A DNA stretch of 64,000 nucleotides from positions 36,719 to 100,718 of the forward strand of contig CAXGWS010000003.1 in NCBI GenBank assembly GCA_964013535.1, in the 5' to 3' direction. The stretch comes from an uncultured Candidatus Poseidoniales archaeon. Its GTDB lineage: Archaea; Thermoplasmatota; Poseidoniia; Poseidoniales; Poseidoniaceae. The notes beneath the pieces are model-generated. The model saw only the letters and a list, made by a program, of their open reading frames with translations. It did no database searches and was not told where the DNA came from. Positions 5,002-58,449 of the stretch are shown in pieces (within the stretch, counting starts at the first letter, position 1; each line of letters begins with the position of its first letter). The position numbers and the translations under genes are program-made.

Positions 5002-5448
5002 TCAGATACTTCTTACTTCAACACCGGCTTCTCTCAACATTTCATTAGAGATGGTGAAATCTTCTTGCCATCGCTCCGGAATTTTGCCAGCATCCGGATA
5101 TACTACCTCTTTGATTCCGGCCTGAATCAATGACCTAGCACACCTAGAACATGGTGGCCATGTCACATACGCAGTGCTGTTTTTCAGTGAAACACCGATT
5201 CTTGCAGCATGCATTATGGCGTTTTCTTCGGCGTGGCAAATTAGTGGATATTTCTTCTCTCGATTTGTCAATCTATCCTCATCATCATCAATGCCTCGAG
5301 GGAATCCATTGAATCCCGTTGAGCGAATTTCTCTGTCCTCTCCAACAACTACACAACCAACTTTAGTCGAGGGGTCTTTGCTCCACAAAGAGATGTGCTT
5401 AGCAAGTTCAATGAACCTAAAATCCCACTTATTGCTCATCCGGACCAA
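5002..5448 (-). CDS. dCMP deaminase (cytidine/deoxycytidylate deaminase family)
   Basis: Zinc-binding motifs HAEENA and PCSRCA; about 148 aa. Confidence 0.75.
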   Translation of the reverse strand: MVRMSNKWDFRFIELAKHISLWSKDPSTKVGCVVVGEDREIRSTGFNGFPRGIDDDEDRLTNREKKYPLICHAEENAIMHAARIGVSLKNSTAYVTWPPCSRCARSLIQAGIKEVVYPDAGKIPERWQEDFTISNEMLREAGVEVRSI

Positions 5449-50809: not shown

Positions 50810-51154
50810 TCAGAATTTGTCTTCAGCAGGAGTTCCTGTGGTGACGTTACCATCTTGGTCGATGATGATTGGTGTTCCTTCTTCCCAGCCTGGGCAGTTG
50901 CTGGAAACCCAAGTTCGAGTTGCCCATTCGCAGATGTCATATCCGCCAGAGAGAATTCCAGATCGCTTTATGTATCCAACTTTGACAATGTCTTTGTCTT
51001 TAGATAGAACGTTACCCAATTGTTGGCTTGTAGTGCCGTGACGCATCGTACTATTGATGTGTTCCAAAATCTCCGCAGTGTTGCGGGGTCGTTCTCCTAA
51101 AAATTTCTTGATTTTTTCTCTTATCCTAGTTGTTTTCATCATAATCACGCTCAT
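50810..51154 (-). CDS. Small hypothetical protein, possible winged-helix DNA binder
   Basis: 114 aa; NTAEILEHINS...TSQQLGNVLSKDKDIVKVG resembles an HTH-wing. Divergent from the 840-aa gene across an AT-rich intergenic region. Confidence 0.3.
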   Translation of the reverse strand: MSVIMMKTTRIREKIKKFLGERPRNTAEILEHINSTMRHGTTSQQLGNVLSKDKDIVKVGYIKRSGILSGGYDICEWATRTWVSSNCPGWEEGTPIIIDQDGNVTTGTPAEDKF

Positions 51155-51159
51155 GTCAC

Positions 51160-51399
51160 GCAGCGCATATCCATTGAATAATTGCCACTAAATGACAGGA
51201 CAGCGGTGGCTGATATAATAGTTCCTCCAAAATCAATAGTTTGTTACATTTAGGTACGAAATTAAGTGTAAAAAAGTAACCAATTATGATGGGGTGTAAG
51301 TAAATCCATACTATTCCAGTGGAAATATGTAACTAAATGTAACTATAAATTATATTAAACAATAAAATTATAACATAATTGTGAGTAGCGCACTTTGAG
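51160..51399. promoter_or_regulatory. AT-rich intergenic region containing an archaeal mini-ORB dyad, repeats and a DUE-like tract: candidate replication origin and/or operator region
   Basis: Exact TTCCAGTGGAAA at 51314-51325 with GGGGT 22 nt upstream. Tandem ATGTAACTA x2 at 51327-51344. An AT-only run of about 45 nt follows. Confidence 0.35.
51242..51343. repeat. 11-bp inverted repeat GTTACATTTAG / CTAAATGTAAC flanking the ORB-like dyad
   Basis: Arms at 51242-51252 and 51333-51343, about 80 bp apart; checked by reverse complement. Confidence 0.7.
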
Positions 51400-53922
51400 G
51401 TGACATATTTGTCTAAAAACAGGATAAGAAGTCACTACCAGCGCCGTATTCTTACTTGGTTGGTTGATAACAGTGGCTCGGTATCTGAAGTTTCAAAATC
51501 ACTCAAACTCCAGACGCCTCATGCTTCATCTTCGTTGAGCGAATTAAGAAAAAGAGGGTTGGTGCACAGAGATGACGCTCATGGAATCCGAGGGGCGATA
51601 CACAGTATTACCCAAGCTGGTAGAAAACAATTAGAGGAAGATCGTCTAAGTCTGTATAAGAGATATGTGGCAAAAACAAATCAAGAATCTGATGGTATTG
51701 TGTTAGAAACTAAAGGCCGTGAATTGCTACTTTGTTATCATAAAAACCCACCAAACTCTTTGATTTCCCTACCACTATATCCGTATAGTGACAATTCCGA
51801 TGATGCAATAATCTCCAGTGGAACAGATGGGGTGATTTGGGCATCAGTCGTCCCCGATTCAACTCGATGGTATTCTACTGATACACTAAAGCAGGTTTCA
51901 CCACCGAATGAACTCGGTACGGGTACCTTAGATGCATGGTTGCAAACCACTGATTCATTTGCTCTAGTGCGGGCAATTTTGTTTGAGCCAATCAAGCAGT
52001 GGAATGTTCCACCAGGGACTGAATTTTCGACTCCGAATTTGCACTCTTCACCATTACCAAAAGTAATTACGACAGGGAAACACAGTATTGGAAACATTGT
52101 TGGGACTGAGCTTGGCGTCATGTGGGAGAATAGACTTCATGCTCACCTATCGTCTAATGTTGATATTAACATTCTAATCAACTCGTTTTCACAGGAGGCA
52201 TATGTAATGCGCAAAAATCCGGTTAAACCTGACGTGACAAATATCCCAATTGGTAGTCTGTTCGAATGGCTGAAGTTACGGCACAAGCGATTAGGTGAAA
52301 ATAAAATCACTGAGAAATTCCTTCACCTTAAATCAATCATCCAGAGTGACTCAATAAACGGATTGAGTTTTTCCTTGCAGAAGGAAATTGCGAAGGATTT
52401 TGGTTACTGTAATTGGATTGATGAAATTCCAAGAAATATCGAGATATCGAATCTCTCAAGTAATGGCCTAAAGGCTATAATTCGGCATTTAAAAAACAGC
52501 CTTGATGCAGAATATGTAATCGAATGGGACTGGCCAATTAATGACGATATAGAGTTTCTAAATCACTTGATAAGAGACACTAACTGCCGTCTGTTGGTAA
52601 CCAAAGTAGGTCCACCAGGGAATATTATCTCTACATTGGGAACATTAAATTCTCTATCAGATTTAGCAATGGTTCGGTTAGAATTGCCAAATCAACACTC
52701 TCTCGATATCAAACTAACCGGCGATTCAAGGCCACAAATGAGTATTTCTCACAGCGTCGTACCGGCCGATGCTGTTGAATTACTATCGGCTTTTAATGAT
52801 GGTAATTGGCAATTAGACTTGATGTCCGAGGTTTCAAGGGATTTTGAAACGAGTAGCCAAATTTGGCAGGCTTTGAGTAAATATCCTGATGGCGATGAGA
52901 TGTGGGCAAACAGTATTGAAACATCTAATCCATTGGCGGCATGGATTGCAACTCCTATCGAACACCGCCCAAGCCGATGGGTAAGAGTTCAAAATAAATT
53001 TGATACAAATTGGGCAGATTTACTGCCGCTTGAAAATTCTTCTGCAGAGTTAATCGCGGCAAGTTTACATCAAGGTAGCGAGAATTTTCGTTCAAATGCA
53101 ATTGATCAACTCGCTCAGCGATTTCTTTTAGACCATCAGCTGCTTATTGAAATCGAAAATTTAGACGGCAACTCGCTACAATCAAGTGGGATTTCAACCG
53201 CTATTCTATTGGTGTGCGATAAATTACCTGATGAATTTTCTAAGTATGTTACCTCGGCAGTAGATAATTGGTTAGACTATCCACTATTCCCTGCGAGGGT
53301 ACTTAGTGCCTTATTTACTAGTAATCAGCATGGTGATACAGACCGTTTTGGAGTTTACAACAAGGTTGTCCTAGCCTCTAAAATTCATCCAAAAGATTCG
53401 ATTTTGTTCAACTGGGGTCGTTACGTTGCTTGCCTAAAAAATTCTGAGACAATTCAAAATGAATTGATGCGGACATTTATGACATTACTACCTTATCATT
53501 GGTGGCAAGCAAACTCTTCAGATTGGCTGGTTAGTCAATTATCCAGTTCTGCTGGGCGCAGATGGTTGACCAATCAGACCATACCATGGCCAGCCTTAAT
53601 TTTTAGATTAGATGGCGAATTGTCAGGACCTCCCGGCTCACAAAGCAAATTTGTCAGGAAGATACCGCCAACTTCCGAGTTGCTTTTCATTCCCATAATG
53701 CAGGATTGTCTGGCTAAAGATTCACTCATGGATGTTTATGATTTAGCATCCAAGACCGAGGACAATAAATTCAACATAACCCCACGAACTCACCCCATGA
53801 TCGGGTATCTGGTTCGGTCGCTTCAAGAATGGCCAGATTTTGATAGTGATATAATTGACCAAGGTGACAAAATGACCGGGTGCTTGTTATTTGGTATTTC
53901 TTATCATAAAAATATCATTTAA
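51400..53922 (+). CDS. Large orphan protein (840 aa) with N-terminal winged-helix (MarR/ArsR-like) domain
   Basis: The N-terminal 90 aa (RRILTWLVDNSGSVSEVSKSLKLQTPHASSSLSELRKRGLVHR) look like a wHTH; the other 750 aa show no recognisable motif. Codon usage looks more AT-rich than neighbouring genes. Confidence 0.5.
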   Translation: MTYLSKNRIRSHYQRRILTWLVDNSGSVSEVSKSLKLQTPHASSSLSELRKRGLVHRDDAHGIRGAIHSITQAGRKQLEEDRLSLYKRYVAKTNQESDGIVLETKGRELLLCYHKNPPNSLISLPLYPYSDNSDDAIISSGTDGVIWASVVPDSTRWYSTDTLKQVSPPNELGTGTLDAWLQTTDSFALVRAILFEPIKQWNVPPGTEFSTPNLHSSPLPKVITTGKHSIGNIVGTELGVMWENRLHAHLSSNVDINILINSFSQEAYVMRKNPVKPDVTNIPIGSLFEWLKLRHKRLGENKITEKFLHLKSIIQSDSINGLSFSLQKEIAKDFGYCNWIDEIPRNIEISNLSSNGLKAIIRHLKNSLDAEYVIEWDWPINDDIEFLNHLIRDTNCRLLVTKVGPPGNIISTLGTLNSLSDLAMVRLELPNQHSLDIKLTGDSRPQMSISHSVVPADAVELLSAFNDGNWQLDLMSEVSRDFETSSQIWQALSKYPDGDEMWANSIETSNPLAAWIATPIEHRPSRWVRVQNKFDTNWADLLPLENSSAELIAASLHQGSENFRSNAIDQLAQRFLLDHQLLIEIENLDGNSLQSSGISTAILLVCDKLPDEFSKYVTSAVDNWLDYPLFPARVLSALFTSNQHGDTDRFGVYNKVVLASKIHPKDSILFNWGRYVACLKNSETIQNELMRTFMTLLPYHWWQANSSDWLVSQLSSSAGRRWLTNQTIPWPALIFRLDGELSGPPGSQSKFVRKIPPTSELLFIPIMQDCLAKDSLMDVYDLASKTEDNKFNITPRTHPMIGYLVRSLQEWPDFDSDIIDQGDKMTGCLLFGISYHKNII

Positions 53923-53949
53923 TACGATGGTTTCATTTATGTTGGCGTA

Positions 53950-54300
53950 TGCCACGAACTGCCGTACTAGCAACATCGGGCAGAGCTACTGTGAAATTGC
54001 AATGAAGTTCGATACCAATGTGCGGTCCGCTATCGAAGACCAAAATGACCCTTGAGGGGATGATTTTTGGGGCAAAAGCGGTAAACCATTTGGTAGGTTA
54101 TGGGTCCTTGTGTGACGCAAGGATGAACTCAAGACAACCACCCTATCATACAGCACGCCCCGGCACCGAGGGTCAGGCCTTGGAGCAATGCGATGAAACA
54201 GGCCGTTAGGAGCCGGGGCACAGCGCTGACAAGCAAAGAAATCGAGTTATCGACCCAAAATCGAGCGATTAACTCAAAGGCCAATTTCGTTACAGGCAAG
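53950..54300 (+). ncRNA. Candidate structured non-coding RNA (possibly SRP/7S RNA); strand and ends uncertain
   Basis: About 380-bp gap with no credible ORF. Locally GC-rich and hairpin-dense, with perfect stems GCCCCGGC...GCCGGGGC, TCCTTG...CAAGGA, CTGCCG...CGGGCAG. An internal ACCGAGGGUCAGGCCUUGGAG resembles the SRP helix-8 segment ACCAGGUCAGGUCCGGAAGG. Confidence 0.3.
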
Positions 54301-54302
54301 CA

Positions 54303-55325
54303 ATGGCAACTAATTACAGCTATGCTTGTTGCCTCGTCGGGGGAACTTTTGACAGATTTCATTCGGGGCACAAATTACTACTAAGCATGGCTATATCCCG
54401 CTCAGAAAGGGTAGAAATTCACGTAATCAATGATAATCTAGCCGGCCGTAAATCAACCTTCATTGAAGATTATGATACGAGAGTTAATTCTATTCTTGAT
54501 TGGTTAGAAGAGAAATCATATCACTCAGTTAAGTTGTTTCAGTTAGACGATGCTTTTGGCCCAGCGCCTTCTCACAAATCCGCCGATGTAATTGTCGCAA
54601 CACCGGAAACTGTTGGTAATTGCCACGAAATAAACCGTATGCGCAGCGCTCAAGGTTTAGCAGAATTAGCAATTCTTGAGGTGCCCCACATGCTAGATTA
54701 TTCTGGCAAAATTATCAGCAGTTCGAGGATAAGAAGCGGAATAATTGACTCCGAGGGTAATCCATGGATTGAGCCACATCAGCGTAGTCAAAATCTGAAA
54801 ATGGTTTCGAGTTTAGATGAAGAACTCAAGACACCCATGGGAGTTTTATTCCAAGGTCCGGAAGAATTTCCAGAAATCGCAATGTCTGAGGCATTAGAGT
54901 TCATCGACCGAGAAAATAGTGCTATTATCGCAGTTGGTGATGTATCAGTGGCAACGCTGATTGGTATGGGGTTAACGCCCGATGTCGGAATAATTGACGG
55001 TATGACAAAACGGGCAGAACTTGATGATGCCCAAAAAGTAGTAACAACGAGTTTCAAGAATAAACTCAGTGCAGTGAACCCTCCCGGTCATTTGACGCCT
55101 TCACTCATTGAGGCAATTGAACAGGCCCTGTCGAACGAAGCGCCGACAGTAATCAATGTAGATGGGGAAGAGGATTTAGCTCCAATAATTATCCACTGTC
55201 TTGCGCCAATTGGGACCTCAGTTGTTTACGGTCAACCAAAGGTAGGGGTTGTGGTACAAATTTCAAGCCTTGAAGTAAAGCAACGTTGCCGTAACATAAT
55301 ATCAATGTTCGAGGTGGTTGATTGA
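54303..55325 (+). CDS. Bifunctional phosphopantetheine adenylyltransferase (archaeal PPAT) / GTP-dependent dephospho-CoA kinase (DUF359) fusion
   Basis: N-terminal nucleotidyltransferase motif VGGTFDRFHSGH (the (H/T)xGH box of archaeal PPAT). The C-terminal half carries AIIAVGDVSV and INVDGEEDLA, signature segments of the DUF359/COG1909 dephospho-CoA kinase. Confidence 0.55.
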   Translation: MATNYSYACCLVGGTFDRFHSGHKLLLSMAISRSERVEIHVINDNLAGRKSTFIEDYDTRVNSILDWLEEKSYHSVKLFQLDDAFGPAPSHKSADVIVATPETVGNCHEINRMRSAQGLAELAILEVPHMLDYSGKIISSSRIRSGIIDSEGNPWIEPHQRSQNLKMVSSLDEELKTPMGVLFQGPEEFPEIAMSEALEFIDRENSAIIAVGDVSVATLIGMGLTPDVGIIDGMTKRAELDDAQKVVTTSFKNKLSAVNPPGHLTPSLIEAIEQALSNEAPTVINVDGEEDLAPIIIHCLAPIGTSVVYGQPKVGVVVQISSLEVKQRCRNIISMFEVVD

Positions 55326-57053: not shown

Positions 57054-58295
57054 TTACAATCGTGTTTGATATTTGTATGTTCCATTGAATATATCTTCGA
57101 GTTCGGTTTCTGATTCAATCATTATCTCAATTGGGTCAATATTTTGTGGAATACACGAATTGATTTCTTTTGAACGGCCGTATCTACCTTTGCTAATGGT
57201 TCTTGCAGTGATTAATCCTAACATATCCAAACTCGAGATTAATCCAGAAACTCTGCGCTGTGTCAAGGCGTTTGTACCGAGGTGTCGACAAGCCTGCGAG
57301 TATATGTTGTATACTTCTCCAGTTTGTATATTTTTTAGACCGTTTTTCTCGTTGATTAGAATTGCTGCTAACACTATTTTTTGCTGATTCGGTAGCTTTG
57401 CAATCACTGGAGTCATCTGATCAGCTTCGATTTGGTGCTGGGCTAGTTTAACGTGATTTTGTTCGACTTTGACTGAGCCGCTAAGTTCTGCTTTTTCCGC
57501 CGACACTCTAAGCAAATCCAGTGCGCATCTAGCATCCCCATGTTCTTGGGCAGCAAGTGCCGCACACATTTCAATAACGCCATCACCTATGACACCTTCA
57601 TGAAGCGCAATTTTTGTTCGCTCTCGCAGGATATCTTGCAGTTGCTGAGCATCATATGGATTAAAAATCACATCCAGTTGGCCGAGCCTTGACCTAACTC
57701 TTGGATCGAGGAAATCGGTGAATTTGAGATCGTTTGAAATTCCAATTACACATGATCGTGCTTTTTTCAAAGAGGAGTTTAGATTGGTGAGGTTGTACAG
57801 TAAGTCATCTCCAACTTTTCTAACCAAATGGTCAATTTCATCAAGTACTATTATGAATACACCCTGTCTTGAATCCATACGCTTTACAAGCTCGCTGAAT
57901 ACTCTGTCAGTAGGCCATCCTGTGAATGGTATCTCATCTATTTCATGGGCTTCTAACAGTGAATTGCCAATGTGACTTAGCACTCTATATTGTGTGTCTA
58001 TTTGTCGGCAGTTAACAATAACAGTCTGAACAGACCTGTTTAATTGCTCTCCTTTCTCTTCGAGTTGCGCACAAACATAGTTTGTAACTGCGGTTTTTCC
58101 TGCACCCGTCACTCCATAAAGCGTCATATTCGAGGGAATATGGCCTTTGAGTGCTTCAACAAGATTGAATGATAGAGTTTCTATCTCATTCTTGCGGTGA
58201 GGTAGGTTGTTTGGATGATAGTTGTGGCGGAGAAATTCTTTGTTCTGGAACAGTGTTTTTCTAGACAGATAACCATCAAATATGTTTTCTGTCAC
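57054..58295 (-). CDS. orc1: Orc1/Cdc6 replication initiator (AAA+ plus C-terminal winged helix)
   Basis: LPHRKNEIETL, Walker A YGVTGAGKTAV, Walker B VLDEIDHL, sensor regions and a C-terminal wH; 413 aa. Confidence 0.85.
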   Translation of the reverse strand: MTENIFDGYLSRKTLFQNKEFLRHNYHPNNLPHRKNEIETLSFNLVEALKGHIPSNMTLYGVTGAGKTAVTNYVCAQLEEKGEQLNRSVQTVIVNCRQIDTQYRVLSHIGNSLLEAHEIDEIPFTGWPTDRVFSELVKRMDSRQGVFIIVLDEIDHLVRKVGDDLLYNLTNLNSSLKKARSCVIGISNDLKFTDFLDPRVRSRLGQLDVIFNPYDAQQLQDILRERTKIALHEGVIGDGVIEMCAALAAQEHGDARCALDLLRVSAEKAELSGSVKVEQNHVKLAQHQIEADQMTPVIAKLPNQQKIVLAAILINEKNGLKNIQTGEVYNIYSQACRHLGTNALTQRRVSGLISSLDMLGLITARTISKGRYGRSKEINSCIPQNIDPIEIMIESETELEDIFNGTYKYQTRL

Positions 58296-58449
58296 TGTTT
58301 TTCCCCCTACATGTTAGCGCAACCGGGCCAGCCGGATTGAGCGCGATGAACCTCCCAGTCCGAGTCCCCCTCATAAGCATACCTTCGAGAATTTTTTTCA
58401 CAATCAAATTTTACAGGTATTTGATAGTAAATTGTTCAACAATGTAATG

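Follow-up and report, generated by a model that had tools for sequence, protein, structure and literature searches.

The stretch of DNA analyzed here, 64,000 nucleotides of contig CAXGWS010000003.1 from an uncultured Candidatus Poseidoniales archaeon (below referred to as the window), harbors at 51243-51834 two sequences that match the origin recognition boxes (ORBs) of archaea. On balance, we consider it probable that this interval carries the binding sites for the initiator protein Orc1-1 at the chromosomal replication origin (oriC) of Marine Group IIa archaea (MGIIa, Poseidoniaceae), interleaved with a promoter that is marked by GTAAC boxes. Marine Group II (MGII) organisms rank among the most abundant surface-ocean archaea; to our knowledge, they have never been cultured, and no replication origin was found described for them in the literature searched. 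A first-pass annotation had offered three options for part of this DNA, i.e., an oriC located apart from orc1, the origin of an integrated element, or an operator array for the two flanking genes. The non-adjacent oriC is the leading explanation among these, but the evidence for it is new: a second box, the inverted arrangement of the boxes in basal lineages and the linkage to an Orc1-1-type gene. The elements and genes concerned are listed below.

51313-51326, minus strand (probable orientation): ORB1, a mini-ORB dyad, ATTCCAGTGGAAAT; exact consensus match and conservation
51344-51395, no strand: AT-rich tract, candidate duplex unwinding element (DUE), which also holds the predicted TATA box and B recognition element (BRE) of the 840-residue protein gene; stability ranking
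51813-51834, plus strand: ORB2, a complete box, CTCCAGTGGAAC-AGAT-GGGGTG; consensus match and codon conservation
50810-51142, minus strand: DUF3860 gene, encoding a small putative nucleic-acid-binding protein; Pfam PF12976, E = 2.7e-35
51400-53922, plus strand: gene of an 840-aa protein with an N-terminal MarR/ArsR-type winged helix-turn-helix (wHTH) domain and ~750 aa without a recognized fold; weak HTH_5 and MarR_2 matches
57054-58295, minus strand: orc1/cdc6 of the Orc1-1 (initiator) type; scores 508 bits with the equivalog model NCBIfam NF001625 (cut-off 501)

A further ORB within a few hundred base pairs, which the first-pass annotation regarded as expected of an origin but overlooked, is found 499 bp downstream of ORB1. 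This second box, ORB2, is composed of a dyad, a 4-5-nt spacer and a G-string, falls in the first 450 nt of the 840-aa coding sequence (CDS), where it is read as codons S-S-G-T-D-G-V, and is the sole full-ORB match in the 64 kb, where 0.12 are expected. For comparison, 42 clusters of homologs of the 840-aa protein (48-66% identity) were found, and scanning one genome per species yielded 33 loci, the records of which are Candidatus Poseidoniaceae, Poseidoniales or marine euryarchaeote metagenome-assembled genomes (MAGs). A scan of all loci for TCC-N3-GGAA revealed a second dyad 499-502 bp past the first in nearly every MGIIa locus, and ORB2 is kept in 30 of 30 MGIIa loci; no other full ORB was found in the window, nor consistently in any of the loci scanned. 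The sequences of ORB2 are as follows.

ORB2 by locus: window, CTCCAGTGGAACAGATGGGGT; L001, ATTCCAGTGGAACAAAAGGGGT; L030, CCTCCAGTGGAAATGAGGGGGG
ORB2 in the table of relatives: L001, ATTCCAGTGGAACAAAAGGGGTG; L003, ATTCCAGTGGAAGCATGGGGGTG; L025, CTTCCAGTGGAAAAGCAGGGGGG; L030, CCTCCAGTGGAAATGAGGGGGGC

Published ORB consensus sequences read CTTCCAGTGGAAACGAAAGGGGT in Archaea and GTTCCAGTGGAAATGG-AGGGGTA in the Methanomassiliicoccales, the latter reported as the sister lineage of MGII (PMC4153887, including its Table 2). The match to the ORBs of this sister order spans 18-20 of ~22 positions.

The location of ORB2 within a gene makes it possible to separate constraint on the DNA from constraint on the protein. 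In an alignment of 30 MGIIa sequences, 56 columns hold an invariant residue that is four- or six-fold degenerate (S/L/R/G/A/P/T/V). A single codon is used in three of these columns, all in ORB2 (Ser TCC, Gly GGA and Gly GGG), while the remaining 53 use 3-6 codons each; the chance of obtaining exactly those three columns out of 56 is 1 in 27,720. The middle codon (AGT, ACT or AAT, for S, T or N) alters the residue only at the dyad center such that TCCA-N-TGGA is retained, and the encoded peptide differs between lineages (SSGTDGV, SSGSMGV, SNGNEGG, SSGKAGG) while the DNA motif is constant. As judged from these codons, selection at ORB2 acts on the DNA, not on the protein. In the AlphaFold2 (AF2) model the residues encoded by ORB2 form a lower-confidence loop after the wHTH domain. 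Two ORB-like strings in MGIIb, TTCCCCTGGAAGTAGAGGGGC (+160) and GTTCCGATGGAAC (+1233), were rejected as chance matches, their synonymous sites being variable, and serve as a negative control.

The first box, ORB1, resides in the 245-bp divergent promoter region between the DUF3860 and 840-aa genes. Its 12-mer TTCCAGTGGAAA (51314-51325) had been recognized in the first-pass annotation as the ORB core, an identification borne out by its match to the published consensus in 12 of 12 positions and by its conservation in relatives. The argument then given, i.e., that a chance copy of a 12-mer in 64 kb is improbable, is not the right test. The 12-mer is indeed the sole exact copy in the window, but looser forms of the motif are found about as often as chance predicts (11 copies of the dyad with two mismatches against 7.85 expected; one TTCC-N3-GGAAA against 0.69 expected), and statistics based on the window alone are therefore weak. 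The decisive evidence is positional conservation across relatives: TTCC-N3-GGAA is kept in 27 orthologous loci, ~87-98 nt before the start of the 840-aa gene, with a dyad center that varies (AGT/ACA/ACC), and across these same loci identity of the 840-aa protein is as low as 27-66%. By this comparison, the 12-mer is a functional sequence and not a chance occurrence.

In contrast to ORB2, the orientation of ORB1 in the window is not marked by a G-string. On the plus strand, GTAACT is found where the G-string would stand. The GGGGT at 51291-51295, earlier proposed for this role, is on the wrong side of the dyad, at the wrong spacing, and is not conserved (GATGGGTTG, GATGGATG and GACTGGTTG in relatives). 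On the minus strand, the G patch is degenerate in most lineages (GGAATAGTATGGAT / GGAATAGTATGG in the window, GGAAAAGTATGGGT in L002). L030 and L036, the lineages that diverge most, have a full minus-strand ORB as ORB1, TTTCCGGTGGAAC-ATA-GGGGGT, and ORB1 of the window most likely has the same minus orientation. Because ORB2 reads on the plus strand and has its G-string on the right, and ORB1 is complete on the minus strand in L030 and L036, the two boxes of these lineages are inverted full ORBs with the dyads inward, which, on the evidence of these two lineages, is the ancestral layout. The opposite polarity is thus explicit in L030 and L036 and probable in the window, where the 485-bp spacing is unusually long. 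The winged-helix domain of Orc1-1 binds the mini-ORB part of the box (PMC3089459), and boxes that flank a DUE have opposite polarity, which brings the winged-helix and lid domains face to face (PMC6742236); the predicted MGIIa arrangement fits this polarity.

Just inside ORB1, between the two boxes, is the AT-rich tract. The claim of a purely A/T stretch of about 45 nt does not hold, as 36 of the 40 nt at 51344-51383 are A/T, with pure runs of 16 and 13 nt and one C between them; nevertheless, no stretch of the 64 kb is richer in A/T or less stable, the tract ranking first in AT content and in low nearest-neighbor stability at every window size of 40-100 nt. In 16 of 27 loci no 60-mer is less stable than the homologous tract, which takes rank 2-9 in the others.

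The initiator gene orc1 was correctly placed by the first-pass annotation, which also noted that its upstream region is without an ORB; we find neither a dyad nor an ORB there, in the window or in the loci of relatives. The best matches of its product in the PDB are Sulfolobus solfataricus (Sso) Orc1-1 (2QBY_A, 1.5e-98) and Aeropyrum pernix ORC1 (2V1U, 1.3e-89), both of which were solved on ORB DNA, while the match to ORC2 of the Orc1-2 type (1W5S, 1.9e-12) is far weaker. In the alignment to 2QBY_A, the helix-turn-helix (HTH) motif TQRRVS, the wing motif GRYG and the initiator-specific motif (ISM) PFTG are all conserved. Mutation of R341, R365 or G120 in Sso Orc1-1 weakens origin binding (PMC3089459), and with a chain-numbering offset of ~11 the conserved motifs appear to contain the equivalents of these residues. 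The orc1 product is the presumed binder of both ORB1 and ORB2. Its gene is not adjacent to the locus, but is found 5.2 kb and four genes away in the window and, in every lineage, at 5.5-7 kb from the 840-aa gene, i.e., the linkage is conserved. The upstream region of orc1 holds a 21-nt block, CTTATGAGGGGGACTCGGACT (reverse complement; 58357-58377), ~60-80 nt before the start, which is invariant in all MGIIa lineages even at 67-70% Orc1 identity and is followed by a GC-rich, variable, leader-like segment (58296-58356). This block is not an ORB because it has no dyad, and it may be a promoter or leader element of orc1.

The chromosomal setting, in an MGIIa archaeon (Poseidoniaceae), is uniform. 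The window has an even composition of ~43% G+C without any compositional break, genes of housekeeping type, including those for a coenzyme A (CoA) biosynthesis fusion and fructose-1,6-bisphosphatase (FBPase) near the locus, and a single tRNA, 33 kb from the locus. Gene order is constant across more than 30 Poseidoniales genomes (MAGs), including a 1.54-Mb contig: the DUF3860 gene, the 840-aa gene, a phosphopantetheine adenylyltransferase (PPAT)/dephospho-CoA-kinase fusion, a glycosyltransferase, a small hypothetical gene, orc1 and a metallo-beta-lactamase gene. Because this order is the same in the loci of all relatives, the window is, by this comparison, a conserved chromosomal region of MGII archaea and not a mobile element.

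If the interval is the chromosomal oriC of the Poseidoniaceae, the two boxes at 51243-51834 would be bound by the Orc1-1 initiator, whose gene is 5.2 kb away. An inverted arrangement is the most likely one, with dyads inward and G-strings outward, such that one Orc1-1 monomer per box would bind with the winged-helix domains pointing at each other across 485 bp. ATP-bound Orc1-1 at the opposed ORBs would then recruit MCM to the DNA between them, as in the standard archaeal mechanism, and unwinding would begin at the AT-rich tract at the left end of the interval (51344-51395). The same DNA would act as a divergent promoter, in which a transcription factor, perhaps one of the flanking DNA-binding proteins, probably binds the GTAAC pairs.

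These features may be compared with those of known systems. As at the Orc1-1-dependent origins Sulfolobus oriC1, Pyrococcus oriC and Aeropyrum ori1, the box consists of a TTCCAGTGGAA dyad followed, after 4-6 nt, by GGGGT, the boxes have opposite polarity with dyads inward (explicit in L030 and L036), an AT-rich tract is found between them, and the linked gene is of the Orc1-1 type, with its HTH, wing and ISM residues conserved. Unlike those origins, the MGIIa locus has two boxes only, 485 bp apart, one of which is in a coding gene while the other is without a G-string in most lineages; it is located four genes and 5.2 kb from orc1 rather than adjacent to it, and shows no skew signal. The locus is also similar to the ORB pairs of the Methanomassiliicoccales (Borrel et al. 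2014, PMC4153887, Table 2), in which a near-identical box has the same one-nucleotide-shorter spacer (GGAAATGA-AGGGGT, compared with GGAAATGAGGGGGG in L030); these boxes are also paired, inverted and near orc1/cdc6.1 (PMC4153887). Those pairs differ in being intergenic, 39-256 bp apart and directly flanking orc1, and they too are predictions (PMC4153887). The dp1 cluster of Pyrococcus and Thermococcus (Matsunaga et al. 2007, PMC1904270) also has ORBs within a CDS, a few kilobases from cdc6 and conserved throughout the order. That cluster is bound by Cdc6/Orc1 in vivo and accompanies a separate, many-box intergenic oriC (PMC1904270), while the intragenic MGIIa box is the only complete one. The latter, i.e., a sole complete ORB inside a gene, is the unusual feature of the locus, for which the intragenic, Cdc6-bound ORBs of Pyrococcus dp1 (PMC1904270) are a partial precedent; an oriC distant from cdc6 has a precedent in Thermococcus.

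The intergenic DNA in which ORB1 is embedded contains additional conserved elements.

51211-51221, minus strand: TATA-like TGATATAATAG, predicted promoter of the DUF3860 gene; ATATAA is invariant in MGIIa, and the role is assigned from position
51243-51257, minus strand: mirror pair GTACC-N5-GTAAC, 23 bp upstream of the minus-strand TATA-like element
51295-51303, no strand: TGTAAGTAA block, kept as (T/A)GTAAGT(A/G)A in MGIIa lineages
51329-51343, plus strand: GTAAC-N5-GTAAC pair, candidate activator or operator site, 24 bp upstream of the plus-strand TATA-like element
51364-51373, plus strand: AAAATTATAA, predicted BRE/TATA of the 840-aa gene, 27-36 nt before the GTG at 51400; conserved in the close clade

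Among 20 close relatives, per-column identity in 30-nt blocks at 51160-51339 is 0.84-0.95, with one block at 0.76 (51280-51309); in the 840-aa gene of the same relatives it is 0.62-0.86, and their proteins are 48-66% identical. By these measures, the intergenic DNA is conserved as much as, or more than, the flanking genes. In all MGIIa lineages, 196-198 nt separate the GTAAC repeat from the start codon of the DUF3860 gene. In an alignment of 24 lineages, including the MGIIb-like loci L031-L035 that are without the dyad, the invariant blocks are ATATAA (51211-51221), GTTAC (51243-51247) and GTAAC-N5-GTAAC (51329-51343), while the TGTAAGTAA block and the dyad TTCC-N3-GGAA are kept within MGIIa only. 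Since the GTAAC boxes persist in L031-L035, where ORBs are missing, they are part of the promoters rather than of the ORB. The first-pass annotation had described these elements as an inverted repeat that brackets the dyad and tandem copies that follow it. The two ATGTAACTA copies, 10 bp apart, are present, and the inverted repeat is real and in fact longer (15 nt, 51243-51257 / 51329-51343, 93% complementary; its perfect 11-nt core, 51243-51253 / 51333-51343, is one base off the earlier placement), but the repeats are GTAAC promoter boxes and not ORB parts. In the mirror pair, GTTAC is invariant in all lineages and the inner box is degenerate (GGTAC/GATAC/GTTAC/ATGAC). The spacers of the box pairs do not covary, while the pentamers are invariant, which makes an RNA stem unlikely.

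Both genes display the same layout, i.e., a GTAAC-type box pair, then 23-24 bp, then a TATA-like element, which suggests two divergent promoters with predicted factor-binding boxes upstream. If the TATA-like element on the minus strand is a promoter, 51143-51210 would be a conserved 5' leader of the DUF3860 gene with a Shine-Dalgarno-like GAGNGTGAT. An enrichment of GTAAC-N5-GTAAC or of the dyad, such as a regulon would entail, was not seen elsewhere in the window. A GTGAC at the start of the 840-aa gene (51400-51405) is kept even in lineages that use an ATG 8-11 nt further downstream as start codon, the close clade shows no variation in the opening codons GTG ACA, and the reverse complement GTCAC (51155-51159) opens the conserved leader of the DUF3860 gene; GTGAC and GTCAC may be initiator or box elements. 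In position, the GTAAC boxes and TGTAAGTAA are analogous to ucm of Sulfolobus (Dhanaraju et al. 2025, PMC12141716), a conserved non-ORB motif at or in the AT-rich part of the origin, which is bound by the small DNA-binding protein UBP. There is no sequence similarity between ucm and the MGIIa boxes, UBP is limited to Sulfolobales and Desulfurococcales (PMC12141716), and the GTAAC boxes, unlike ucm, are set relative to TATA and persist without ORBs, which points to transcription.

The DUF3860 protein is an ortholog of PDB 2OD5 (2od5_A, E = 7e-58, ~90% identity), a structural-genomics "hypothetical protein". Its conserved start, MKTTRIR, is at 51139-51137 in an open reading frame that extends to 51154; the gene is among the best conserved of the region (0.86-0.92 nucleotide identity) and is always divergent from the 840-aa gene in relatives. 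In the AF2 model of the 840-aa protein (pLDDT 74.6), residues ~10-95 alone match known structures, all of MarR/ArsR type, and a Foldseek search of the model against the PDB revealed no structural link to replication proteins. Downstream, the intergenic region 53923-54302 holds a GC-rich (~0.55), structured noncoding RNA (ncRNA) candidate of ~270 nt (53962-54230, plus strand). Its sequence is conserved, with an identity of 84-96% in close relatives and of 76-77% in the deep lineages of MGIIa. RNAalifold yields -60 kcal/mol and 55 pairs, 17 of which show compensatory changes, and no match is found in Rfam 15; its 3' hairpin (GGGUCAGGCCUUGGAGCAAUGCG...) may resemble helix 8 of signal recognition particle RNA. 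The fusion gene that follows (54303-55325, plus strand) joins an N-terminal PPAT to a C-terminal DUF359 / GTP-dependent dephospho-CoA kinase domain, which together cover the last two steps of CoA synthesis.

Several observations weigh against an origin at this locus. The G-string of ORB1 is lost in the window and in most of MGIIa, and a lone mini-ORB binds Pyrococcus Cdc6 weakly and is unoccupied in vivo (PMC1904270). The boxes are only two in number and separated by 485 bp, 415 bp of which is coding DNA, while described pairs are 39-256 bp apart in the Methanomassiliicoccales (PMC4153887) or directly flank the DUE in Sulfolobus. Both ORBs are missing from the MGIIb-like loci, though gene order, GTAAC boxes and orc1 are retained there. 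The AT-rich tract also carries a gene promoter, which gives its composition a second explanation. Finally, at an origin of the bacterial type the strand skew is expected to change sign, and no inflection is seen at the locus, either in the window or in 10 relatives, when the skew analysis suggested earlier is performed: the orientation-corrected plus-strand skew at third codon positions (GC3) is +0.059 to the left (23 vs 14 genes; t-test p ~0.004) and +0.046 to the right (5 vs 4 genes), the 10 related lineages display +0.072 and +0.091, respectively, with unchanged sign, and the cumulative skew rises straight through the locus. This null result has limited weight because a peaked skew is seen in only 18 of 224 archaeal genomes (PMC7111523), and the test is weak, with only 12.7 kb to the right of the site and large gene-specific effects; thus, the skew analysis neither confirms nor excludes an origin. 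Over the window (1-64000), the mean coding-strand GC3 skew is +0.03 for plus-strand and -0.09 for minus-strand genes, and the orientation-independent strand asymmetry peaks at 51.4-59.2 kb, a feature that is conserved in the 10 lineages.

Some of these observations would also be explained if Orc1-1 binds both boxes at a site that is regulatory or dormant rather than an active origin, the main rival explanation, though not a likely one. Bound at positions -85 and +415 relative to the 840-aa gene, Orc1-1 would then control the divergent pair, e.g., in coupling to the cell cycle, and replication would start elsewhere. Such a role fits boxes that are embedded in a promoter and a CDS, the absence of a skew inflection, and the retention of the genes without the boxes in MGIIb. 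It also has parallels in the dp1 ORB cluster of Pyrococcus, which is bound by Cdc6, yet initiation maps to oriC (PMC1904270), and in the dormant origins and origin-independent replication of archaea that are described in two reports (PMC4595724, PMC5663688). However, the 64 kb around the Orc1-1 gene yielded no other ORB, Cdc6 of Pyrococcus has hardly any site besides oriC (PMC1904270), and the inverted, dyad-inward geometry and the extreme AT-rich tract are origin features that would be unneeded for repression. A more radical alternative is that the region comprises the divergent promoter and its operators only, the ORB likeness being coincidental and the dyads being bound by a flanking wHTH protein or another factor. 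The symmetric [GTAmC-N5-GTAAC]-N23/24-TATA layout of both genes, the DNA-binding type of both neighboring proteins, the survival of the GTAAC boxes in MGIIb without ORBs and the dyad symmetry, which is typical of dimeric regulators, are consistent with this explanation. We nevertheless consider it distinctly unlikely: the G-string of ORB2 is at ORB-specific spacing and frozen at synonymous sites, L030 and L036 have a G-string also at ORB1, such an asymmetric G-string is superfluous for a dimeric regulator, and 18-20 of ~22 positions match the ORBs of the sister order. The operator array proposed in the first-pass annotation is probably correct for the GTAAC boxes, but not for the ORBs.

Two further explanations have been rejected. 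A small structured RNA at ~51243-51343, closed by the 15-nt inverted repeat, might account for an intergenic identity that equals or exceeds that of the coding flanks, for the strictly conserved spacing of 196-198 nt, for the repeat itself and for a hairpin-like covariation in two deep clades (GTGTAATTTTTACAC vs CAGTGCATTTTTCGCACTG). It is very improbable, as there is no Rfam match at gathering or E-value thresholds, and RNAalifold on the 24 lineages yields -0.23 (plus strand) and -0.43 (minus strand) kcal/mol, with five invariant pairs and zero compensatory changes; no supported structure is found in sub-clades either, on both strands. In addition, the region is 67-75% A+T, the repeat spacers are without covariation while the pentamers are invariant, and the ncRNA candidate 2.6 kb away does show covariation in the same genomes (17 of 55 pairs). 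An origin that belongs to an integrated plasmid or virus, the second option of the first-pass annotation, would agree with a locus that is not adjacent to orc1 and with the presence of the motif on two contigs filed as viral in IMG/VR. This explanation is scarcely credible and is refuted by the chromosomal synteny over more than 30 Poseidoniales MAGs, one with a 1.5-Mb contig, together with the housekeeping neighbors (e.g., the CoA biosynthesis fusion and FBPase), the unbroken, uniform composition and a nearest tRNA, the only one, 33 kb away. The two contigs (151 kb and 192 kb) carry ORB1 and the GTAAC motif at 5015-5034 (L037) and 119-138 (L038), and both stop within 0.1-1.9 kb on its right side, so that they extend the locus only to the left; possibly they are MGII chromosomal fragments filed wrongly as viral.

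An extension of the origin reading, which we consider rather unlikely, is a composite of origin and promoter, in which lineage-specific proteins from either side, with the DUF3860 protein and/or the 840-aa wHTH protein as candidates, would serve as accessory or licensing factors that act via the GTAAC boxes in a manner similar to UBP/ucm or WhiP. If this were true, expression of the flanking proteins would be coupled to initiation, and the initiator site would have dictated part of the 840-aa sequence (S-S/T/N-G-x-x-G-V/G) throughout the history of the family.

Irrespective of such a coupling, the frozen codons of ORB2 offer a clean example of a predicted initiator-binding site that constrains coding sequence over long evolution. 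If the site does not fire, it would be a conserved non-origin target of Orc1-1, which is hardly documented in archaea. If, on the other hand, the interval is the oriC of MGIIa, as we consider probable, it would provide a fixed reference point for orienting MGIIa genomes, and coverage-based (peak-to-trough) estimates of the in situ growth of these archaea would become possible from existing metagenomes.

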